Source of the DNA: Candidatus Woesearchaeota archaeon
GTDB taxonomy: Archaea; Nanobdellota; Nanobdellia; Pacearchaeales; GW2011-AR1
NCBI GenBank assembly: GCA_964467035.1
Contig: CAYXNX010000003.1
Location: 21,252 to 85,251, forward strand
Length of the DNA: 64,000 bases
Reading direction: 5' to 3'
In this document: positions 1,251 through 48,630 of the stretch, piece after piece
How positions within the stretch are numbered: the stretch's first letter is position 1
Layout of the letters: each line of letters begins with the position of its first letter
Notes under the pieces: model-generated
Database searches by the model: none
What the model saw: the letters and a program-made list of their open reading frames with translations, nothing else
Told to the model about the DNA's origin: nothing
Translations under genes and position numbers: made by a program

Positions 1251-1433
1251 AATGTTTTTTTTAGAAAAGAACCAAAACAAGACGCCCCTCTCTCTCTCGT
1301 CCTTCGGACATATTCACTCCCTACGGTCGAATTTATCAGTAATCCAAAAACTCTAAAATTTTCCTTCGGAACGTTGCACTAAATTTTAGGTCTTCCCGTT
1401 GGTCAGACGAAACTAACACCCCTTTAAGCCGAA

Positions 1434-1543
1434 TTTTGCTCCCCACATCCCTTCTATTGTCAAGACACCCCCAACGCAAAACTCACTCAAACAAATATAT
1501 GAAAAACTCGTGCCTCTCCAAGTATTCGAGGTCGATTAACACC
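1434..1543. repeat. Family A dispersed repeat, copy 1 (C-rich on + strand)
   Basis: 1434-1497 aligns at roughly 85% by eye with 2611-2664. 1480-1543 aligns at roughly 90% with 30886-30946, including a perfect 27-mer (1500-1526 = 30903-30929). A further shared motif, ccttcgg..ttgcactaaa, is at 1363-1387 and 2530-2550. Confidence 0.8.
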
Positions 1544-1814
1544 CCTTCAACGAAATTTCTAATTCTCCTAAAATCTTTAAGTAAAAAAATAGCTAAAATC
1601 TCTCTCAGACATCCCCCGACCAACTCACAACCTCGCACGGCTTATTTTATTCTTATTTACTGCCTACCACGAAGTTGCTCGCCCACCTCCGGTTACGAGG
1701 TGCGCGCCTGTCCTTCGGACATTTAGTTAAACCTCGTTTCAGATTTATTTAGAAATAATCTTTTTTCCGCCGCCCAATCAATAACTTAATAAATAACATA
1801 TAGAATTAATCTTC

Positions 1815-2469: not shown

Positions 2470-2529
2470 CAAAAAGCGACGACAAACCCCTAAGAAATAA
2501 AATATAGTGCCGACAACTTTGATTTTTTG

Positions 2530-2664
2530 CCTTCGGCATCATTGCACTAAAAATCAATCCCTCCAAGTATTCGGGAGAGTTGAACAGCGATTAATCAAAA
2601 TTTTGCTTCCTACAACCCTTCTATTCTCAAGACACCCTCAACGCAAAACTCACTTCAAATAAAT
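2530..2664. repeat. Family A dispersed repeat, copy 2 (circularly permuted relative to copy 1)
   Basis: Contains ccttcggcatcattgcactaaa, ctccaagtattcggg..gattaatc and ttttgcttcctacaacccttctattctcaagacaccctcaacgcaaaactcac. All three have counterparts in 1363-1543, but in a different order. Confidence 0.75.
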
Positions 2665-2725
2665 CCCAAAGAACATAGTTAAAAAGAATTGTAAGATTTA
2701 TTAACCTTGAATTCCATATAAGATT

Positions 2726-3631
2726 ATGGAAATAAATTTTCTTCAACTCTGGAGCTCAGAATACTTTAAGATTTTAATAAAATCAATTATTATAATTGTT
2801 ATTGCTTTATTTATTAATCTTTTATTTAAAAGATATTTTAAAAAAATAATTTCTCAACTAGAGAAAGGAAAACTTACCCAAGAAAAAAAATCAAGAAAAA
2901 CTCGAATTGAATTTTTTAAAACAATTATTTCTACATTTATAGTTATTTTAGCGTTACTCTCTATTTTAATGCTTATTCCAGGATTTAAAACATTTTCAGT
3001 TTCGTTGCTTGCAGGAGCAGGAATTGTAGCAATTGTAATTGGTTTTGCAGCACAAAAAACACTATCAAATATTGTGTCTGGTATTTCTATTGCAATTTTC
3101 ACTCCTTTTAGAATTGGAGATAGATTAAAAATTTTAGACGAATTTGGAGATGTTGAAGATATAAACTTAAGACACACAACTATCAAAACTTGGGATAATA
3201 GAAGAATAATAATCCCCAACTCATTAATTTCTGAAAAAGAAATAATTAACTACAGTATAAAAGAAGAAAGAATGATTTGGACAATAAACCTTGGAATAAG
3301 TTATGATTCAGATATAGATAAAGCAAAAAAAATTATGATAGACAAGGCAAAAAAACACCCCGATGTAATAATTCCTGAAATAAAAAATGAACAAGGAATT
3401 TTAGAAAAAAGAGAACCTTATGTCAGAGTTACTGAATGTGGAGACTTTGCTGTTAATTTAAGACTTTACTTTTGGGTAGATTCTCCTCTCAAATCTTGGC
3501 CAACTGGTTTTGACTTAATAGAACAAATTAAAAAAGAATTTGATAAGAAAGGAATTGAGATTCCTTTTCCATATAGCACAATTGTTTTTAAAAAAGATTT
3601 AGATGAGAAAAAGAAAAAAGATTCTTCTTAA
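2726..3631 (+). CDS. mscS: MscS-family mechanosensitive ion channel
   Basis: TM helices followed by the QKTLSNIVSGISIAIFTPFRIGDRLKI motif typical of MscS. Confidence 0.85.
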   Translation: MEINFLQLWSSEYFKILIKSIIIIVIALFINLLFKRYFKKIISQLEKGKLTQEKKSRKTRIEFFKTIISTFIVILALLSILMLIPGFKTFSVSLLAGAGIVAIVIGFAAQKTLSNIVSGISIAIFTPFRIGDRLKILDEFGDVEDINLRHTTIKTWDNRRIIIPNSLISEKEIINYSIKEERMIWTINLGISYDSDIDKAKKIMIDKAKKHPDVIIPEIKNEQGILEKREPYVRVTECGDFAVNLRLYFWVDSPLKSWPTGFDLIEQIKKEFDKKGIEIPFPYSTIVFKKDLDEKKKKDSS

Positions 3632-3633
3632 TT

Positions 3634-4272
3634 TTACTTTACAGCTTCTATTCTTTTAAATACATCAAACAGCATCAAGTTATCTTCTCTACTTATTTTT
3701 AATCCTGATTTTTTAATATTTTCAATTGTTTTTCTATCAATGTTAACTCCCAATAAAAATTTAGTTAAAGGGTTATGTATATGTTCAAAAATAGCTAGTA
3801 AAAGATGCTCACTCAACATATGTTCAATCATTAAAACTTTCCCAGAAGGTTTAACAACTCTTTTCATTTCTTCTAAAACTTTTATAGGATTTGGGACAGA
3901 ACATAAAACAAAAGTACATAAAACATAATCAAATTTGTTATCTTTAAATTCCATATTTTGAGCATCCATTTCTTTTAATTCAATATTTTTATTTCCTAGT
4001 TTATTCAATTCTAAATAAGCTTTACCTAACATACCGGGAGATATATCTATTCCAGTTACTTTTGCTTTTGAGTTATAATATTTTAAATTCTTTCCAGTTC
4101 CAACTCCCACTTCTAAAATATTTCCTTTTAAATCTTGAATCAGTTCTTTCCTTAGTTTATTTAAAACTCCTATTTCCATAGGTTTTTCAAAAAGATTATA
4201 AAACTTGGAAAATCTATCATATTTTCTCTTTACTTTATTTGTTTGGATTTCTAATGCAGTCTTTTTCTTCAT
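3634..4272 (-). CDS. class I SAM-dependent methyltransferase
   Basis: Motif I ILEVGVGTGKN, and later FDYVLCTFVLCSVP and KPSGKVLMIEH. Confidence 0.8.
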   Translation of the reverse strand: MKKKTALEIQTNKVKRKYDRFSKFYNLFEKPMEIGVLNKLRKELIQDLKGNILEVGVGTGKNLKYYNSKAKVTGIDISPGMLGKAYLELNKLGNKNIELKEMDAQNMEFKDNKFDYVLCTFVLCSVPNPIKVLEEMKRVVKPSGKVLMIEHMLSEHLLLAIFEHIHNPLTKFLLGVNIDRKTIENIKKSGLKISREDNLMLFDVFKRIEAVK

Positions 4273-4330
4273 TTTTTCTCAAATATACTTATAATTTAAT
4301 AAAAAAATAAAAATAAAAATAAATTTAAAC

Positions 4331-5032
4331 TTATGCTAATTCTGCATCAATTATTTGTTTAAACGCTGAAAATGGTTGAGCTCCACTAAGAGGTTTTCCA
4401 TTAATTATAAAGTAAGGTGTTCCTCTTCCTCCAGCAGCTTGTGCATCAGCAAGATCATTCTTTACTTCACTTAAATATTTTTCAGAATCTAAACATTCAT
4501 CAATATCATAACCAAGATCTTGTGACCATTTTTTCAAATTTGCTTTACTTAACGATTGTTGATTTGCAAAAATCACATCATGGTATTCAAAATAAATTTC
4601 ATCTCCTCCTTGTTCCCTTATACATTCCGCAGCTATCGCAGCAGGCGTAGCCATAGGATGAATACTATCTAAAGGAAAATCTCTATAGACAAAAGTCACC
4701 TGATCTCCATATTCAGCTAAAACCTGTTTTACAGTTCCAGAAGCTCTTGCACAAAAAGAACATTGAAAATCACTAAATTCAATAATTTCTACAGGAGCAT
4801 TAGGGTCTCCAATTCTTGCGTCATCATCAGCACTTGCACTTACAACACTTGGTTGGTTATCTCCACTAGGTTCACTAGGAGGATTGTTATTTGCAACAAC
4901 ATTTCCTTCTTTATTTCCTCCTAAAAAAACAATTCCTCCAATAACTAAAAGTGTAACTAAAACAAATGTGCTATACTTCCACAAATCTTGTTTATTCATT
5001 GTTATTGTATCACTTTCTTCCATCTTTTTCAT
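4331..5032 (-). CDS. membrane-anchored DsbA-like thiol:disulfide oxidoreductase
   Basis: N-terminal TM segment and thioredoxin-fold CxxC (FSDFQCSFCAR). C-terminal GTPYFIINGK is typical of the DsbA family. Confidence 0.75.
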   Translation of the reverse strand: MKKMEESDTITMNKQDLWKYSTFVLVTLLVIGGIVFLGGNKEGNVVANNNPPSEPSGDNQPSVVSASADDDARIGDPNAPVEIIEFSDFQCSFCARASGTVKQVLAEYGDQVTFVYRDFPLDSIHPMATPAAIAAECIREQGGDEIYFEYHDVIFANQQSLSKANLKKWSQDLGYDIDECLDSEKYLSEVKNDLADAQAAGGRGTPYFIINGKPLSGAQPFSAFKQIIDAELA

Positions 5033-27949: not shown

Positions 27950-28333
27950 TATTTAAATTTATCGTTATCTAAAAATTATGCTCCCACCAGACATATATCA
28001 CTCCCTAAAAGGATTACATCTCTTTCTTCTTGATTTATCTTTTAATTACCATTTTGTCTCATTAAGAAGTTTTGTCCATCTCTGAAGTGTTCTTTTCCTT
28101 ACCTCAACAAATTTGGAGAAAATAATTTTTCTACACTGATTTTGTAATCCATATGAACCGCCATTTATAAATTATAAATTTAATTATATTCTAAAGATTT
28201 CTTTTTTAACATGTCTGATGGACTGGAATTGCCCTCTTTTTCTAAAAGAACATTAAACTTAAACTAAATTGCAACCAACATCGGGCTTAAAAGAAGTTTA
28301 ATTTACTCTAAAAAATCCTCCTCGTGAAACAAA

Positions 28334-28413
28334 GCTGATAATTTTTTCAGAGCTGGGGCGAAATTTTGGGAAATCATCCAGTTTGAGATTTCCTCTTTAT
28401 CTTCTGTTCAACG
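28334..28413. repeat. Family B structured hairpin repeat, copy B1
   Basis: gctgataa...ctgttcaacg outer arms and ggaaatc/gatttcc apical stem. 28341-28375 is identical to 47457-47491 (35 nt). Flanking homology to 47375-47456 begins near 28267. Confidence 0.8.
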
Positions 28414-28506
28414 ACCCAATCTGATAGGCGAGAATGCAACATTCTGAAGTAAAATTTTAGGCGAGGGCTCTGTTTTTAATCTTTTTATGAAGCAAAGTTT
28501 TGTTAT

Positions 28507-29154: not shown

Positions 29155-29309
29155 TTTTAATCTCCAAATCTCTAAGAAAACTTAGAGGTTTATCCTTCAC
29201 CTCTTAATAATTAGAAATAAAGGGTAGTTTATAAATTTTTGCCCATTTTGAGTAACTGCTGAAGGCAGACTATATGTGCGTAAGCACTGCCCGAGCCCAA
29301 AATTTTATT

Positions 29310-29395
29310 GCTGATAACACTGGAATTTAACGAAGTTTTGCCGTAGAAAAAATTTGGGAAAATCCTGCAGGATTTTCTGTTTAAGCCCTGTTATG
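29310..29395. repeat. Family B structured hairpin repeat, copy B3
   Basis: gctgataac ... gttatg outer boxes. Perfect 20-nt palindrome gaaaatcctgcaggattttc at 29358-29377. The downstream segment 29397-29467 is homologous to 47530-47583. Confidence 0.75.
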
Positions 29396-29562
29396 TCTTC
29401 CGAGGTCTTTAACACGAGAGCCTGCAAGGCGTGGCACGAGCAGAACGAACGAAGTGACCTCGTGAGTTTCCAATCTCCGAAAATTCGTTGTTATCGTAGT
29501 TGTCAGAGAATTATTTTGAATTTGCCGAAAATTTTAAAAATAGAGAACATCTTCTTTTTTGT

Positions 29563-30075: not shown

Positions 30076-30143
30076 TCGTTAAAATTTTGTTAAGCAGATT
30101 TGCGTAGCAATTTTGTGAGAGCTTTCTTTATGATTTTAACGAA
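30076..30143. repeat. Family B-related hairpin, copy B5
   Basis: 11-bp perfect stem ttcgttaaaat / attttaacgaa enclosing gcgtagcaatttt (compare gcgtagcgaacgatttt in 46131-46148). Followed by gataaca. Confidence 0.6.
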
Positions 30144-30221
30144 GATAACAATATTAGAATTTTCAGTTTTAACCTCTGTGGAGGCAAGTCCCGAATTGAG
30201 CATAACACCGATTATGTCCAA

Positions 30222-30761
30222 TCAAGAATTCATCTCTTTAATCTTCTTTATTAATTCTTTTATATCTTTATTATTTTTCATTATCAAAAATTCTTTTGCA
30301 TATTTTTGTAGATAATCTTTGTGAGAATCTAAAGTCACAAAATGATTTGGGTCGTGATAATATTTGTGGACTTTTTTCATAATATTAAATGTTGATTTAA
30401 TCCCATTATCTTGATATTTATAATTATGGAATTTTCTCTTAAAATGTCTTGAGAAAATTCTTTTGTATAATACCAGTTGAGGTATTTGCAAGAAAATTAC
30501 TAAATCTGCTTTCTTATATAATTCGACAGCATAAGAAGTCCACGCACCTTCAGTAATCCAAGATTTTTTATTTGAAATTTCTTTTACTTTTTTCAATCGC
30601 TCTTTAACAGGCCAAATTATATCATATTTTCGTTTATATTTTATTTCATCCAAATCGTAAGTTTTTATTTTTAATAAAGAGGATAATTTTTTTGCTAGTG
30701 TTGATTTCCCAGAACCATAAATTCCCACAATATGGATTTTTGAAATTCTCTTTTTTCCCAT
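30222..30761 (-). CDS. P-loop NTPase, adenylate-kinase/FlaR-like
   Basis: IHIVGIYGSGKSTLAKKL Walker A at the N-terminus. Size 179 aa. Confidence 0.6.
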   Translation of the reverse strand: MGKKRISKIHIVGIYGSGKSTLAKKLSSLLKIKTYDLDEIKYKRKYDIIWPVKERLKKVKEISNKKSWITEGAWTSYAVELYKKADLVIFLQIPQLVLYKRIFSRHFKRKFHNYKYQDNGIKSTFNIMKKVHKYYHDPNHFVTLDSHKDYLQKYAKEFLIMKNNKDIKELIKKIKEMNS

Positions 30762-30885
30762 AAAAAAATTATTTATTGTATATTTAAATCTCTTTCTATT
30801 TTTAACTATGACTTCTTAACTTCTCACTTCATTCGTCGGCAGATTTAACACCTCTTAACCAAAATTACTCATTTCATTCGCAACC

Positions 30886-30946
30886 CACTTCAAACAAATA
30901 TCTGAAAAACTCGTGCCTCTCCAAGTATTTGGGTTAGATTAACACA
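30886..30946. repeat. Family A dispersed repeat, solo copy 3
   Basis: cacttcaaacaaatatctgaaaaactcgtgcctctccaagtatttgggttagattaacaca aligns with 1480-1543. Enclosed by cattcgc (30874-30880) / gcgaata (30947-30953). Confidence 0.8.
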
Positions 30947-31084
30947 GGCGAATACTCCTTTATTCTAAGTTTAAAGTATTCTTTTCTTATTTCTTCTTTT
31001 TTCATACAAAACCGAAGAATCTATCTCCGAACTATTTTTTGATTTTGCCTAGTGACATATGTCCACCTTGCTATACACATTATC

Positions 31085-40458: not shown

Positions 40459-40690
40459 ATTTTGACAAATATTTGAAGTTTTATATTAATTTATATATAA
40501 AAAAAGATGTATTAAAATAACTAAGGGACCTAAATAATAAGGTCCCTTTTCTGCCCCCTCCTTCTCCCAACCCTGCTCGCCTTGTTCCATCCTTTTCAAA
40601 CCCCCACTCGCAAAGTTGCTCTGACTCGAAAAATCAAATTTTGAATCTCAACAAATCTACGAAGTAGTAGGGAATCTACGATTCCCAATA

Positions 40691-40919
40691 TGCCCCCTCC
40701 GGGACTCGAACCCGGGTCTGGGCCGTTCTCCGAAGATCCCAAAATTCGCTGAAAAAACGAAAGCTTCTTCATTAACTCTCGGGACCTAACAATTAACTAA
40801 TTGTCGACCTATGAAGTCTTGCCAGAGAGCAGCTGATTTGAGAATCTAGGTTTATCCTTTCATCAAGGATAAACCACTGCTCGAGAGGGCCCAATGCTTG
40901 ACCGCTACACCAAAGGGGC
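40691..40919 (-). tRNA. tRNA-Glu (anticodon CUC) with an intron of about 156 nt at 37/38
   Basis: 5' exon GCCCCUUUGGUGUAGCGGUCAAGCAUUGGGCCCUCUCG (40919-40882). 3' exon CGGCCCAGACCCGGGUUCGAGUCCCGGAGGGGGCA (40725-40691). The acceptor, D, anticodon and T stems all pair. A bulge-helix-bulge can be drawn: a 4-bp helix CUCU/GGAG flanked by 3-nt bulges CGA and AAC. Confidence 0.8.
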
Positions 40920-40955
40920 ATAAATAACCTCAATTTTCTAAGTATAAAAATCTTA

Positions 40956-42671: not shown

Positions 42672-42789
42672 GGCTCGAATCAAACGCTCCAAGCAGGATT
42701 CGATCCTGTATGTTGAGTTTACGAAACATCCGCAACAAAGTGAGGACAAAGGTTCGAATCAAACTCTCCAAGCAGGATTCCATCCTATA
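42672..42789. repeat. tandem tRNA-T-arm-like repeats abutting the 3' end of tRNA-Gln (79-nt period)
   Basis: 42672-42710 and 42751-42789 match at 35/39 positions (ggYtcgaatcaaacKctccaagcaggattcSatcctRta). The core caggattcga resembles the tRNA-Gln T-arm at 42801-42816. A third related copy is at 41812-41830. Confidence 0.7.
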
Positions 42790-42791
42790 AA

Positions 42792-42864
42792 TAGCCCGTC
42801 CAGGATTCGAACCTGGGTCAGCTGGCCCAGAACCAGCTATACTTGACCACTGTACTAACGGGCT
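42792..42864 (-). tRNA. tRNA-Gln (anticodon CUG), no intron
   Basis: AGCCCGUUAGUACAGUGGUCAAGUAUAGCUGGUUCUGGGCCAGCUGACCCAGGUUCGAAUCCUGGACGGGCUA folds into a full cloverleaf. A1-U72 is typical of archaeal tRNA-Gln. Confidence 0.85.
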
Positions 42865-45379: not shown

Positions 45380-45472
45380 AGCCACTGACGGGACTTGAAC
45401 CCGTGACCTCGTCATTTTTGATATTATCATAGTACCAATGACGCGCTCTATCCTAAACTGAGCTACAGCGGC
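45380..45472 (-). tRNA. tRNA-Thr (anticodon GGU) with an intron of about 17 nt at 37/38
   Basis: GCCGCUGUAGCUCAGUUUAGGAUAGAGCGCGUCAUUGGUA[CUAUGAUAAUAUCAAAA]AUGACGAGGUCACGGGUUCAAGUCCCGUCAGUGGC. All four stems pair. Exact splice points are approximate. Confidence 0.8.
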
Positions 45473-45596: not shown

Positions 45597-45887
45597 CTAA
45601 AATAAATCTGGTTTCCACCTAAAAAGATCTTCTAAGTTTATTCTTTCCAAGCCCTTGCCAGTAGAAGTAATTGAAATTGAATCTTTGCCTAATTTTTTTG
45701 AAATCACCTTAATTAATTCTAAATTTTCATCAGACATCAAAGGTTCTCCTCCAGAAATATCTAAACTCACATTTAGAATATCTATATTCTCAATAACTGC
45801 TAATTTTTCCCCTAAAGAAAGATCTTTTGTGGGGCTATTTGCATCAAGACAGCAAAAATAACACGAGTAAAGGCATTTATTCGTCAC
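45597..45887 (-). pseudogene. radical SAM protein remnant (N-terminal ~96 codons only)
   Basis: NVTNKCLYSCYFC CX3CX2C motif plus GGEPL, but the ORF stops after 96 aa. The remaining ~120 nt before tRNA-Thr cannot hold the rest of a radical SAM domain. Confidence 0.5.
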
Positions 45888-46110
45888 ATTCCAAATTAGG
45901 GTGTTTTTATCATTTTCATTTTTTCAAGAATTAAGCATCTTGAGGTGCTAACACCTCTAAAAAAAGATATATAAACAGATATATAAATTTAATTGAAACG
46001 AAGTTTCAGCTATCTAATTTTCGATAGAAAAATTGCGCGCGCTTCTTTGGGTGGGAATTATCAATTAGAGATTTAAATTTTTAGCCCTCTTTCTCAATTG
46101 CAATTAACAT

Positions 46111-46184
46111 CGGAATTTAGCGAAGTCGTGAGCGTAGCGAACGATTTTGGAAAATGCGAGCCGAGCATTTTTCCGTTAAATTCC
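46111..46184. repeat. Family B structured hairpin repeat, copy B4
   Basis: Outer stem cggaatttagcg / ccgttaaattcc. Inner stem ggaaaatgc / gcatttttcc. Shares ggaatttaRcgaagt and gcgtag motifs with 29321-29346. Confidence 0.75.
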
Positions 46185-46313
46185 TATTATATTCGTTTTT
46201 CCCAGTAAAAACCTGGGCCAAAGTGAAACGGTTTTTGCGAAGGAAGCACCATTAGTTAAAAGAATAAAGGGCAGGGATTCATTAATTTACTACTATTTAA
46301 TTACTATATAACA

Positions 46314-46328
46314 GAAACATTTATAAGG
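46314..46328 (+). promoter_or_regulatory. BRE/TATA-like box (gaaacatttataagg) 22-24 nt upstream of the ATG at 46350
   Basis: Read directly. Same element type as at 11188-11200. Confidence 0.45.
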
Positions 46329-46349
46329 TATTAAATTTCTCTAGATATT

Positions 46350-47342
46350 ATGGCAAATGAAACACACTATGGTGTAATATCTGATGTTCATCAAGACCCA
46401 GGAATAGTTCCAGCAACTATTGAAGTTTTGAAAAAATTGGGTGCAGAAAAACTTTTGATAAACGGGGATATTGGAAATCAGCAGAGAACTCTTGAAGATA
46501 GTAAAAATTATGTTGCTTTTATTCTTGATTCAATTGGAAAAAGTGGACTTGAATCTTATGTTCAGCCAGGAAGCCATGAAACACTACTTGCTTTTGGACC
46601 TGTAATGGATGCTTTTGCAGATAAATATTCAAATTTAATTGATGCAACAAAAACTCCAAAAGCAGAACAAAAAGGTCATAGTCTAATTTTCTTGCCAGGT
46701 TCAGATTTTCTTTGTGGTGGGGAATATCAAATCGGAAATCATGAACAAATTCCAAGTGGAAGATATATTCAAACTCAAAAAGGATTAATGCAATTTGAAG
46801 AATTTGGTCAATATGTTGGTGCTCTTCAACAAGGAATTGCTCAAGGAGCAATGCAATATGCCAACATGAATGATTTACGAAGATTGGTAAATGATTCAGA
46901 CAAAAGTATTGTTGTTTGTCATGTTCCAAGAAAATTTGACAATCCTGAATATGCAGTTGATATGGCTGAATTCGGAGAAGCAACAGAAAAATTTAATCTA
47001 AATGGTAATGATGTTGAGCAAGGTTCTGTATTTCCTCTGTCTGTTGCACAGCAGATTGTTCAAGCAGGTTATCCTGTTGAGATAAGACAAGAAAATAGAG
47101 GAAATAAGGATTTAAAATCATTATATGAAGAATTAGGAATAAATAAAGCAGTTAGTGGGCATTTCCATGAGAGTGGACACAGAGCAAATGACACTTATGG
47201 AAATCACGTTTCTGAAGGAAATTTAGTAACTGATTTATTTTGGAATTCTGGACATTTAGATACTGGACAAACAGGAATTTTGACAGTTGGAGACGGAAAA
47301 GTAGGTTATAGAAATATCCGTCTTGAAGAACATCTGAAATAG
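46350..47342 (+). CDS. calcineurin-like metallophosphoesterase (accessory ORF in island 2)
   Basis: ISDVHQD, INGDIGN, GSHE, CHVP and GHFHES motifs in canonical order. Confidence 0.7.
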   Translation: MANETHYGVISDVHQDPGIVPATIEVLKKLGAEKLLINGDIGNQQRTLEDSKNYVAFILDSIGKSGLESYVQPGSHETLLAFGPVMDAFADKYSNLIDATKTPKAEQKGHSLIFLPGSDFLCGGEYQIGNHEQIPSGRYIQTQKGLMQFEEFGQYVGALQQGIAQGAMQYANMNDLRRLVNDSDKSIVVCHVPRKFDNPEYAVDMAEFGEATEKFNLNGNDVEQGSVFPLSVAQQIVQAGYPVEIRQENRGNKDLKSLYEELGINKAVSGHFHESGHRANDTYGNHVSEGNLVTDLFWNSGHLDTGQTGILTVGDGKVGYRNIRLEEHLK

Positions 47343-47449
47343 AATCCCTGCCCCTTCTATATTTAGCCGATTTTTTTATTGAGTTTAACATCGTGATTAA
47401 GAGAAGTGGCAATCCCTCCAAAAATTTATCCTCTGGAACGAAGTGACTA

Positions 47450-47530
47450 GCTGAGGATTTTTTCAGAGCTGGGGCGAAATTTTGGGAAATCCCAAGCCGA
47501 AGGATTTCATCTTTATCCCCTGTTATCAGC
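47450..47530. repeat. Family B structured hairpin repeat, copy B2
   Basis: gctgagga ... gttatcagc outer boxes and ggaaatcc / ggatttc apical stem. 47457-47491 is identical to 28341-28375. Confidence 0.8.
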
Positions 47531-47681
47531 CCCGAGGGCTTTAGCCCGAGAACGCAGTGGGGCACGAAGTGAGTTCGAGACGCCTCTTTTTTGTATTTTG
47601 AAATAATATTTTTTTGGGTGGGCTATGTATTAGAGAAGGCACTTTCGTTAAGTTAATAAATAAAACAACTTTCCCATAATC

Positions 47682-48527
47682 ATGAAAAATTCAGATTTGC
47701 ATACACATAGTTATTATTCGGATGGAGATTTGCCTCCTTCAGAAGTTGTAAAATTAGCAAAACAAAAAGGAATAAAAAATTTAGCAATTGCAGACCACAA
47801 TTCTTTTGAAGGAGTTGCTGAAGCAGTTAAGGAAGGCAAAAAACAAGGAATTAATGTTATTCCTGCAATAGAAATTCGTGCAAAAGAAGATGAGGTTTTG
47901 GGCTACTTTATTGATTACCAAAATGAAAATTTTAAAAAAGAGGTAGAGAAAATTCAAGAAAACCTCATCGACAGAGTTAAAAAAATAATTTTAAAATTAA
48001 ACAAAAAAGGAATAGATGTTAGTTTTGAAGATTTGCTTAAAACATATCATCCAAACAGAAATTTCATGGAGATTCATCTTATAAAATATTTGAAATCTAT
48101 TGGCTTGGGAGATATTAGAGAATTATGGCCAAAATATATTTCAAAAGAAGGGGAAACTTATGTTCCTGTTGAAGAAATTTCTATTTTAGATGCAATAAAA
48201 TTAATCAAAAAATATGGTGGCGTTCCTGTTTTGGCTCATCCGTGGGTAGAGTTAAGTTCAAAAGAATTGTTAAAAGAAGAAAATTTTAAGGAGTTGGTTA
48301 AAGCGGGATTAAAAGGAATAGAAATAGATAATGGCGATAGGGATGACAGAAGAGATGAGCAAACATTAAAGAAAATTAAAGAATTAGCAGAAAAGTATAA
48401 TCTTATCATCACTTCTGGTAGTGATTTTCATGGGGATTATTTAGTTCAAGCTACAAAATGTCATGGACTTGGAGATTATAATTGTGATGAGAAAGTTGTT
48501 GAAGAATTGAAAAAAGCAAAAGAGTAG
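47682..48527 (+). CDS. PHP-domain phosphoesterase (accessory ORF in island 2)
   Basis: DLHTHSYYSDG, IADHNS, the LAHP-type histidine, and SGSDFHG. Confidence 0.8.
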   Translation: MKNSDLHTHSYYSDGDLPPSEVVKLAKQKGIKNLAIADHNSFEGVAEAVKEGKKQGINVIPAIEIRAKEDEVLGYFIDYQNENFKKEVEKIQENLIDRVKKIILKLNKKGIDVSFEDLLKTYHPNRNFMEIHLIKYLKSIGLGDIRELWPKYISKEGETYVPVEEISILDAIKLIKKYGGVPVLAHPWVELSSKELLKEENFKELVKAGLKGIEIDNGDRDDRRDEQTLKKIKELAEKYNLIITSGSDFHGDYLVQATKCHGLGDYNCDEKVVEELKKAKE

Positions 48528-48563
48528 AAAGTGCCTTCTCCTATTGGGTGAGAGAAAAAATCT

Positions 48564-48585
48564 GATTTCCTATTTCTGTATTAAC
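48564..48585. repeat. Family B right-arm-only copy (half site)
   Basis: gatttcctatttctgtattaac resembles the right arm gatttcctctttatcttctgttcaac of copy B1. No matching left arm. Confidence 0.5.
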
Positions 48586-48630
48586 TCTAACTTGTAGGCA
48601 TTCTCAAAAATTGAAACTAACAAGACGGAC

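Follow-up and report, generated by a model that had tools for sequence, protein, structure and literature searches.

Elements integrating by means of Xer recombination (IMEX, of the CTX-phage type) have no recombinase of their own. They are inserted at dif by the host Xer through a folded single-stranded attP(+), form tandem arrays beside dif, and are represented by phages or islands with replication or transfer genes. Plasmids of Acinetobacter contain so-called pdif modules, discrete gene modules bounded by plain 28-bp duplex sites of the Xer type, which alternate in orientation and are shuffled between replicons. Integron integrases are thought to be descended from Xer-like recombinases. Here, we consider a family of structured elements located between open reading frames (ORFs) in a 64-kb stretch of archaeal DNA, hereafter the window (Candidatus Woesearchaeota archaeon, assembly GCA_964467035.1, contig CAYXNX010000003.1; all element coordinates are given in window numbering). 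These elements are not canonical integron attC sites and appear to form a functionally integron-like, Xer/dif-based cassette system. Probably, their function is site-specific recombination at the borders of small mobile gene cassettes in Woese- and Pacearchaeota-type (DPANN) archaea, by a tyrosine recombinase similar to XerA and IntI.

The dif site of Pyrococcus abyssi was described as ATTGGATATAA-TCGGCC-TTATATCTAAA, and in Thermococcales the xerA gene is not located beside dif (PMC2958812). The system considered here resembles this archaeal Xer/dif system in that its recombinase fits XerA best, its ATTG-N4-TAA arm is nearly identical to the dif arm, and a site with the 11-6-11 layout is present in the window. 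In contrast to dif, which is a single duplex site per chromosome without cargo, the arm occurs here many times per genome in folded, cassette-bounding sites, and the recombinase gene adjoins the arrays in related genomes. With IMEX, these elements have in common a forked single-strand hairpin that would imitate dif, including a degenerate second arm after an irregular central region, and the units lack a recombinase of their own. Both in the window and in the related locus L116, a dif-like site stands at the end of an array, and the mechanism would be of the same kind. Here, the units are minimal cassettes, and their much more elaborate fold is conserved throughout an archaeal lineage. Unlike those of pdif modules, the sites are long, folded, strand-specific and co-oriented.

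The family of folded sites

The window has a G+C content of 29.3% and encodes archaeal housekeeping proteins (replication factor C subunits, FEN1 and the beta subunit of archaeal-type phenylalanyl-tRNA synthetase, PheRS), as well as intron-bearing tRNAs. Exactly four members of the family, designated A, B, D and E, with G+C of 0.36-0.41, were found in it, all on the plus strand, using an nhmmer profile and, separately, the covariance model R1 with filters off. Since A and E were outside the R1 seed, the matches of the model to them are independent.

A preliminary description of this DNA had listed five imperfect hairpins between ORFs and one right-arm-only copy. Structured G+C-rich elements do exist at four of these five places, but 30076-30143 (designated C) was matched neither by R1 nor by nhmmer, and the supposed single arm at 48564-48585 proved to be a non-member with both the nhmmer profile and the covariance model. 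When the five hairpin regions were aligned together with their flanks, a longer consensus was common to four of them and absent from C. Each of these two regions lies directly upstream of a related site, namely the dif-like site 30195-30222 and the half-site 48610-48620 (F). The extents given at first are too short: the 5' box conserved in the family (ATTG-N4-TAA-CATCG-P1 arm-AAGT) is situated 14-72 nt upstream of the hairpin starts, and each window element is succeeded by a second domain, about 60-80 nt long. The reported 35-nt identity (28341-28375 = 47457-47491) is real and belongs to a 43-nt stretch of 95% identity within an insertion (about 55 nt) peculiar to A and E. The outer boxes GCTGATAAC / GTTATCAGC occupy positions that are not equivalent between the copies: the box of B corresponds to its left arm, AGCTGA of A and E is located within the insertion just mentioned, and GTTATCAGC of E is found at the 3' end.

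The family search was based on the gap-free strict 5' box ATTGNNNNNAACAYYGNNNTTNANNGAAGT, with one genome per species. It gave at least 120 stretches with exact matches in public genomes, nearly all in records titled Woesearchaeota, Pacearchaeota or Nanoarchaeota. The related loci, about 115 of 8 kb, are denoted by L-numbers (L001, L096, etc.), and R1 recognised 181 copies in 102 of the loci. Typical arrays also occur in records titled as bacterial, i.e. Saccharibacteria, Peribacteria, Dojkabacteria, Thioploca, Parcubacteria and Patescibacteria (L029, L058/L075, L091, L101, L083, L106, L035); these are probably archaeal contigs that were misbinned or misnamed. Viral contigs of IMG/VR gave 0 matches to the strict 5'-box pattern, and a viral vector is unsupported.

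Along the folding strand, a site consists of ATTG-N4-TAA, CA-TC, the 5' arm of helix P1, AAGT with the P2 hairpin, ATTTGG with the P3 hairpin, the 3' arm of P1 and TGTTA. The P1 5' arm is of discrete types, for example, GGAATTTAACG, GCGATTAAGAG and GGGCTTAAGGG. In L004, L081, L101, L052 and window site B, the 5' arm of one type is combined with the 3' arm of another (alignment A2), and such chimeras would point to exchange inside the element besides that at TAA|C. The P2 hairpin often has long insertions. A short module, TTTTGAGGCAACCCACAAAA, is nearly unchanged inside P2 across many species (e.g. L002, L036, L039, L114), and the motifs CCTCGTGA.. and ..CAGAGCTGA recur in the longer insertions; this conservation suggests a possible separate binding partner. 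After TGTTA, a second structured domain of 60-100 nt follows, such as ..AGTGCAACG.. or GAGAGYGCARCGTGG.., with ..CAGAGTTTTT as a frequent end. The sites reach up to about 200 nt.

Using the related copies, it was shown that the family has a covarying and strand-specific fold. The fold is a three-way junction, in which TAACA pairs with the distal TGTTA, TC is bulged, P1 has 11 bp, AAGT/ATTT forms the base of P2, and P3 is a side branch. The TAACA/TGTTA pairs are present in 132-140 of 150 copies. RNAalifold revealed compensatory changes in 11 of 24 pairs in a MAFFT-based alignment of 34 copies. In 150 model-aligned copies, 95.1% of the paired cells are complementary vs. 78.5% in shuffles, and the double-change cells number 582 vs. 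167; neither value was reached in any of 500 shuffles, and slid controls gave 26-57% pairing. The 150-copy alignment was fitted to the model, so these pairing figures are somewhat inflated; the MAFFT-based result has the same direction. Thus, the covariation anticipated in the preliminary description is present when copies are added, yet it is strong in P1 and at the base of P2 across the wider family. The apical stem (helix P3), for which compensatory change had been claimed, shows in the window mostly variation in length and one compensatory swap. Folding as single-stranded DNA gave z values of -4.8 and -7.6 for typical copies, which adopt exactly this three-way junction, -3.1 for D, also as a three-way junction, and -1.7 for B.

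Two asymmetries distinguish the folding strand from its complement. In paired columns, G.T occurs 260 times and A.C 33 times (124 vs. 33 without one invariant wobble). Three-nucleotide loops of perfect hairpins in 161 element regions are GNA (GAA, GCA, GTA, GGA) in 201 cases and the complementary TNC in 3, while the cassette bodies have no such bias. Hairpins with GNA triloops and a closing C-G or T-A pair are the classic case of very stable mini-hairpins in DNA, and such loops are not typical RNA motifs. Another GNA triloop is present in attC aadA7, on its bottom strand, as seen from published primers (PMC9668308). Both asymmetries favour a folded single strand, probably of DNA, over a duplex palindrome.

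Cassette arrays, exchange point and recombinase

As a rule, the sites lie at gene boundaries, as the preliminary description had supposed: ORFs of at least 120 aa, although they make up 68% of the DNA in the 102 loci, contain the midpoints of only 9 of the 181 copies. Two or more copies are present in 50 loci, and none of their 79 adjacent pairs is of mixed orientation. The median spacing between copies is 1011 bp (first 100 loci). Among the spacer ORFs of at least 60 aa, 63 are opposite to the folding strand and 22 are on the same strand; the ORFs being mostly opposite, the folding strand corresponds to the "bottom" strand, as in integrons. The units carry one or two ORFs. In the sense of the ORF, a cassette unit comprises the ORF, the reverse of domain 2, TAACA...CGATG|TTA-N4-CAAT, an AT-rich promoter-like region of about 50-80 nt and the next start codon. 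The cassette ORFs are extremely diverse, and only two weak blastp pairs were found among 85 of them. A Pfam sample of these ORFs included ParE toxin, GNAT, HIT, histidine phosphatase, isochorismatase, NYN and DUF6884 proteins and three ORFs without a family. In L002, the sites 2478-2574 and 2623-2747 start 145 nt apart with no ORF between them; this close pair could be an empty cassette or an excision remnant. The co-oriented arrays with spacing of about 1 kb and the ORFs mostly opposite to the strand-specific fold, together with the fixed junction and the array-end recombinase described below, support the behaviour of the elements as cassette-boundary recombination sites.

The window contains two arrays, the second of them small. 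The first is made up of A, a 215-aa ORF (-), B, a 136-aa ORF (+) with a conserved pre-arm module and the dif-like site, beyond which degenerate remnants on the opposite strand are located. In the second, D, a phosphoesterase ORF, E, an ORF with a PHP domain and the half-site F follow one another, F being the end of the array and adjoining the PheRS-beta gene.

The position of the exchange was indicated by comparison of copies from different metagenome-assembled genomes (MAGs). Their left flanks may be 92-100% identical through ATTG-N4-TAA, with divergence after it; for example, L083:1811 and L046:4044 agree at 100% of positions to the left of the junction and at 38% to the right of it. The reverse case is represented by 16 pairs, in which the right parts are 90-100% identical from CATCG, and the left flanks, including N4, are unrelated. 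L039 and L115 share 304 nt at 99% identity, beginning 3 nt from the junction, and L072 and L076 have at least 365 nt of the left cassette in common and diverge after the junction. Since similarity breaks on either side of TAA|C, the exchange point is placed there. In an all-against-all blastn comparison, loci mostly did not have whole cassettes in common, mainly sites and short flanking modules; this is because they come from different species.

The same place is the border between arm and spacer in dif. Comparison of the family consensus ATTGAATATAA with the P. abyssi dif arm ATTGGATATAA demonstrated that the 5' box is a dif arm, only one position being different. The segment 30195-30222 is the only exact match to ATTGN4TAA-N6-TTAN4CAAT in the window, where 0.01 is expected by chance. 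This dif-like site has the same orientation as A and B and stands at the 3' end of their array, and the layout of L116 is the same. In the duplex-type sites (30195-30222, L116 and those proximal to the recombinase), the arm is followed by CA and 4 nt, making up a 6-nt spacer, and then by the second arm. In the folded sites, the arm is followed by CA, TC and 4 nt, in total 8 nt, and then by TT(A/T)A..GAAGT, and this TC is both conserved and unpaired. GC skew was tried as a terminus marker for the dif-like site and proved uninformative because it tracks gene orientation.

A recombinase linked to the arrays was revealed in related loci. A blastp query 100% identical to the annotated IntI1 was searched against 473 locus ORFs and found relatives of 260-270 aa in 15 loci (27-35% identity, E from 1e-30 to 1e-43). 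With one of them as a tblastn query, the gene was detected in about 20 of the approximately 115 loci, whereas an unlinked single-copy gene of an approximately 1-Mb genome should turn up in only about one. Where the gene and a model match occur together, its position obeys the same rule in 19 of 20 loci: it shares the folding strand, comes after the last site in the 3' direction and so diverges from the cassette ORFs. For example, in L096 the recombinase and its proximal site are followed by five cassettes, with a site after each. Exceptions to this rule of position and strand are L094, where the gene at 3559-4458 (+), encoding 299 aa with a lysine-rich tail, accompanies a site at 4869-4992 (-), and L018 (3-749). 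A site with the shared left arm is located 80-110 nt upstream of the recombinase start codon; it consists of the arm with CA and then either a simple hairpin or a 6-nt spacer with TTAAACGNA..

The recombinase contains the domains PF00589 and SAM-like N-domain PF13495 and has the C-terminus ..IKSPLD, cf. GVRSPLD of IntI1. The IntI-specific insertion (the additional domain around patch III) is absent, which is seen as an alignment gap at about residues 199-247 of IntI1. The match to TIGR02249 is split into two stretches and reaches 186-212 bits, below the cut-off of 265. The best NCBIfam model is NF040815 (recomb_XerA_Arch) with 238.1, 220.7, 202.6 and 192.9 bits, two of the four scores being above the cut-off of 220. 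P. abyssi XerA (PDB 4a8e) is the best solved relative, ahead of VchIntIA.

Probable mechanism and competing explanations

If these elements are cassette-bounding recombination sites, the 11-nt ATTG-N4-TAA would be a XerA-type binding arm, with exchange directly after it, at TAA|C. After extrusion of TC, the folded strand would offer the arm, a 6-nt spacer CAGGAA and a degenerate second arm TTTAACGAAGT, and thereby imitate dif, whereas the plain duplex form would give an 8-bp spacer. The second arm of the mimic would be a part of P1 stacked on the P2 base, with P3 branching from the other strand. The predicted substrate is single-stranded DNA, not RNA or duplex DNA, and the folded strand might recombine by one strand exchange, as integron attC and CTX-phage attP(+) do. 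Its partner would be a duplex core site, either the chromosomal dif-like or the recombinase-proximal one, and replication would resolve the product. Such single-strand exchange would lead to co-oriented arrays ending at dif or at the recombinase gene. Recombination of such folded dif mimics by a XerA-type enzyme is the most likely mechanism and, judging from the related genomes, would also apply to the window itself.

Moreover, Woese- and Pacearchaeota may well possess a widespread Xer-based platform of gene capture, in which a XerA-like recombinase without the integron-specific domain and a chromosomal dif-type site stockpile one- and two-gene cassettes having dif-imitating folded sites. If so, this platform would be an archaeal counterpart of the bacterial integron, possibly its evolutionary cousin or forerunner, which unites integron logic with dif hijacking of the CTX type. 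A natural set of a XerA-type enzyme, a dif-type site and folded cassette sites would make the transition from Xer to integrons directly testable. For DPANN archaea, whose small genomes rely on hosts and neighbours for exchange, it would also be a major way to gain and lose genes. Such cassettes would escape the present integron finders, since these demand the IntI insertion as well as the canonical attC model. Many contig breaks seen in MAGs of Woese- and Pacearchaeota are explained by the sites, the covariance model provides a means to catalogue the cassette pool, and the sites themselves are compact single-stranded DNA recombination substrates usable in vitro. In the full-text literature, including a review of archaeal tyrosine recombinases and with subscription journals outside the coverage, no description of a XerA-linked cassette system in these archaea was found.

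Several facts weigh against recombination sites of this kind. No excision or insertion event was directly observed. A tblastn search with a recombinase of a related locus gave no recombinase in the whole 64-kb window, and thus the recombinase link rests on other genomes. The cluster D-E-F is not beside a full dif-like site. Besides the array recombinase, these genomes may have a separate housekeeping XerA. The similarity junctions lie in a conserved 20-nt core and could stem from homologous recombination: TAA|C is also the most conserved stretch, so that homologous exchange there is a possible source of the breaks. The nearest-neighbour model folds the complementary strand almost equally (-17.8 vs. 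-19.3 kcal/mol), and hence it is the wobble pairs and the composition of the loops on which the strand argument is based. Sites A and E, with 31-33 bits, are degenerate, and some copies have mismatched P1 arms. Finally, an AT-rich TATA-like stretch upstream and T runs after domain 2 fit an independently transcribed RNA.

The competing explanations differ in which of these features they regard as secondary. It is unlikely that the sites are modules with ordinary double-stranded XerA sites, as in pdif, whose hairpins are incidental or serve as protein-binding palindromes. Such modules would agree with the left arm being a dif arm followed by the degenerate second arm TT(A/T)A..GAAGT, with the best fit of the recombinase to XerA and with the dif-like site at the array end, but the duplex spacer would be 8 bp vs. 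6 bp in the dif-like and recombinase-proximal sites. Covariation maintains the pairing of segments 60-150 nt apart, the G.T/A.C and GNA/TNC asymmetries are strong, and all sites of an array are co-oriented, while pdif modules alternate. Conservation of a covarying, strand-specific and G-U-compatible fold is also what would be expected of a multicopy structured non-coding RNA gene or cis-regulatory RNA, which would have its own promoter and a T-run terminator after domain 2, the recombination link being secondary. The TATA-like stretch is situated 15-25 nt upstream of ATTG, domain 2 frequently ends with ..CAGAGTTTTT, and CGTGA/CTGA motifs read by eye in P2 insertions resemble kink-turns. Nevertheless, Rfam 15 gave no match to the elements, either in the whole window at gathering scores (only two tRNAs) or in 46050-47650 at E <= 5. 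GNA triloops are typical of stable DNA mini-hairpins and not of RNA motifs, the 5' box is a Xer arm, the similarity junction falls inside the putative transcript start, and the elements are linked to a recombinase and a dif-like site. An RNA gene is, in our opinion, less probable still than duplex modules. The C/D-box small RNA, hammerhead and twister ribozymes, the 5' end of a group II intron and the bulge-helix-bulge motif were dropped after informal reading of the sequence since their defining boxes are absent.

Selfish repeats spread by another enzyme and found near xerA by chance or tolerance would be similar to repetitive extragenic palindromes and bacterial interspersed mosaic elements (REP/BIME), miniature inverted-repeat transposable elements (MITE) or IS200/IS605-type ends. 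Indeed, REP/BIME with their RAYT transposases also form intergenic mosaics of short, strand-specific, highly repeated hairpin modules. The intergenic make-up is mosaic here too, with short hairpin modules 90-99% identical between species, contigs break at the elements, and degenerate copies occur on both window strands. This possibility seems very small to us because of strict co-orientation and spacing of about 1 kb with one or two ORFs per unit, unlike the scatter of REP or MITE, as well as the rule of position and strand of the tyrosine recombinase in 19 of 20 loci, and the match of the left arm to dif. No HUH/Y1 transposase was seen in the IntI1 blastp search and the small Pfam samples, to which this examination was limited, no systematic profile scan having been made. 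The preliminary description had preferred integron attC sites or clusters of attC lacking integrases (CALINs); in this explanation, a true integron integrase would be encoded elsewhere. The description was right in function, i.e. the behaviour at cassette boundaries and the integrase-less state of the clusters in the window, and wrong in family; a recombinase next to such arrays, for which it advised looking, was found at array ends in related loci, though not in the window. The likeness to integrons is considerable. The cassettes have one or two genes, terminate in a structured site and form co-oriented arrays, with spacing below 4 kb and the folding strand opposite to most ORFs. Terminal AAC/GTT boxes are nearly invariant, contain the exchange point and fit RYYYAAC / GTTRRRY at 6-7 of 7 positions in the copies inspected (GTTA+3 nt and 3 nt+TAAC in the ORF sense). 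In related loci, a tyrosine recombinase with a SAM-like N-domain and a ..SPLD tail is at one array end, divergent from the cassettes and beside a simpler attI-type site. The cassette content is very diverse and includes toxin and GNAT genes, and integrons were reported in Nanoarchaeota (PMC9668308). However, the published attC of Nanoarchaeota is a different, ordinary sequence of bacterial type (PMC9668308). A surrogate attC model, R2, composed of nine published archaeal attCs (Ghaly et al. 2022) and attC aadA7, found the aadA2 attC of a control plasmid (61.8 bits) and no site in the window, L096, L101 and L029 (E <= 10, filters off). In the sites considered, the equivalent of the L box is a perfect 11-bp P1 without extrahelical bases, and the sole conserved unpaired bases are TC on one strand; they have a three-way junction, a second domain and a dif arm as 5' box, their array terminates at a dif-like site, and the recombinase, lacking the IntI insertion, remains below the integron-integrase cut-off. 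Canonical attC sites are therefore the least probable of these explanations, and the caveat in the preliminary description about a distinct recombination element is the better reading.

Features of the window and adjacent observations

The coordinates of the sites, their remnants and the neighbouring ORFs are collected in the table.

Table. Sites, related fragments and adjacent ORFs of the window (limits of the domain-2 regions and of the degenerate copies and fragments are approximate)
Feature	Position	Strand	Score	Description
Degenerate copies	1290..1560	-		partial domain 1 ending GGGG-TGTTA + type I domain 2; second TGTTA fragment 1560-1487
ORF, 199 aa	1815..2414	+		no Pfam family; between two degenerate minus-strand copies
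Degenerate copy	2500..2690	-	no R1 match	GAAGT-P2-ATTTTG-ATTAATCG-CTGTTC + type I domain 2; without left arm
Site A, domain 1	28268..28412	+	R1 31.1 bits, E 7e-5, outside seed; nhmmer 74 bits	left arm ATTGCAACCAA 28268-28278; junction 28278|28279; P1 degenerate; P2 insertion of about 55 nt with the 43-nt repeat common to E
Site A, domain 2	28413..28477	+		..GAGAATGCAACAT.., T run at end
ORF, 215 aa	28507..29154	-		cassette between A and B; no Pfam family
Site B, domain 1	29307..29396	+	R1 69.6 bits	left arm ATTGCTGATAA, then CA-CT-GG; P1 GGAATTTAACG, its 3' arm of a different type from the 5' arm (chimeric); P2 AAGTTTT/AAAATTT; P3 GGGAAAATCC/GGATTTTC; 3' end CTGTTAT
Site B, domain 2	29397..29470	+		CCGAGG.., GAGAGCCTGCAAGGCGTGG.., ..CGTGAGTTT
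ORF, 136 aa	29500..29910	+		coiled-coil-like, no Pfam family; between B and dif-like site
Hairpin C and conserved module	30076..30194	+		hairpin C 30076-30143; directly upstream of dif-like site; non-member
Dif-like core	30195..30222	+		ATTGAGCATAA-CACCGA-TTATGTCCAAT, 11-6-11
ORF, 179 aa	30222..30761	-		P-loop kinase-like (AAA_18/SKI); between dif-like site and degenerate minus-strand fragments
Degenerate site fragments	30800..30960	-		..GAAGT..TTTTGG-TTAAGAGG-TGTTA.. and TGTTAATC-TAACCCAAATACTTGGAGAGG..; oriented towards dif-like site
Site D, domain 1	46097..46192	+	R1 70.2 bits	left arm ATTGCAATTAA, then CA-TC-GG; P1 GGAATTTAGCG/CGTTAAATTCC; P2 AAGTCGT/ACGATTT; P3 GGAAAATGC/GCATTTTCC; 3' end CTATTAT
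Site D, downstream modules	46193..46275	+		structured, domain-2 equivalent; resemble modules after L101:4020
ORF, 330 aa	46350..47342	+		calcineurin-like phosphoesterase; between D and E
Site E, domain 1	47378..47528	+	R1 32.7 bits, E 2.8e-5, outside seed; nhmmer 80 bits	left arm ATTGAGTTTAA; long P2 insertion with the 43-nt repeat common to A; 3' end CTGTTATCAGC
Site E, domain 2	47529..47592	+		CCCGAGGGC.., GAGAACGCAGTGGGG.., end CTCTTTTTT
ORF, 281 aa	47682..48527	+		PHP domain; between E and half-site F
Pre-arm module and half-site F	48537..48626	+		left arm ATTGAAACTAA 48610-48620, then CAAGAC; no recognisable right part (arm motif scan)

Domain 2 of site A resembles the domain-2 types found after TGTTA in 145 copies, and the 215-aa ORF next to it, being opposite to the folding strand, has the majority arrangement. 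The region of about 30070-30200 matches the left flanks of sites in L114, L081 and L102 at 87-95% identity. On the other side of the dif-like core, the 179-aa kinase-like ORF may be a cassette on the other arm of dif, and the fragments at 30800-30960 have the repeat D10 in common with 1487-1542. In L003 and L037, the regions proximal to the recombinase have 92% identity with the left flank of F.

The degenerate copies near the beginning of the window are also close to related loci: 1290-1560 is 95-97.5% identical over 120-143 nt to domain 2 of L115, L038 and L039, and 2500-2690 is 93-98% identical (blastn) to the domain-2 regions of L071, L049, L026 and L091. The 199-aa ORF between them is probably a fossil cassette.

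A public Logan contig, L001 (1.15 kb), is exactly window 47462-48613 and the sole public contig with the PHP protein of the window. It starts at the 30-nt repeat common to A and E and ends 4 nt into the left arm of F, i.e. the assembly breaks at both cassette borders. Directly upstream of site D, a 96-aa ORF (45597-45887, -) contains only the first half of a radical SAM domain and looks like a truncated gene.

Some observations concern tRNA genes. The ends of 40690-40921 (-) resemble the tRNA halves TGCCCCTTTGGTGTAGCGGTCAAGC.. and ..GGGTTCGAGTCCCGGAGGGGGCA, which are about 150 nt apart; they probably represent a tRNA gene whose intron is very long and which escaped both ARAGORN and, at gathering scores, Rfam. 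The tRNA-Tyr call at 45380-45472 (-) has 93 nt; this length is unusual for tRNA-Tyr of archaea, being too great, and an intron is suggested by it. Beside the tRNA-Gln gene (42792-42864, -), there are two tandem copies with 90% identity, 42672-42710 and 42751-42789, similar to a tRNA 3' half (T-arm and acceptor), and this looks like a pattern typical of integration into tRNA genes or of tRNA-half remnants.

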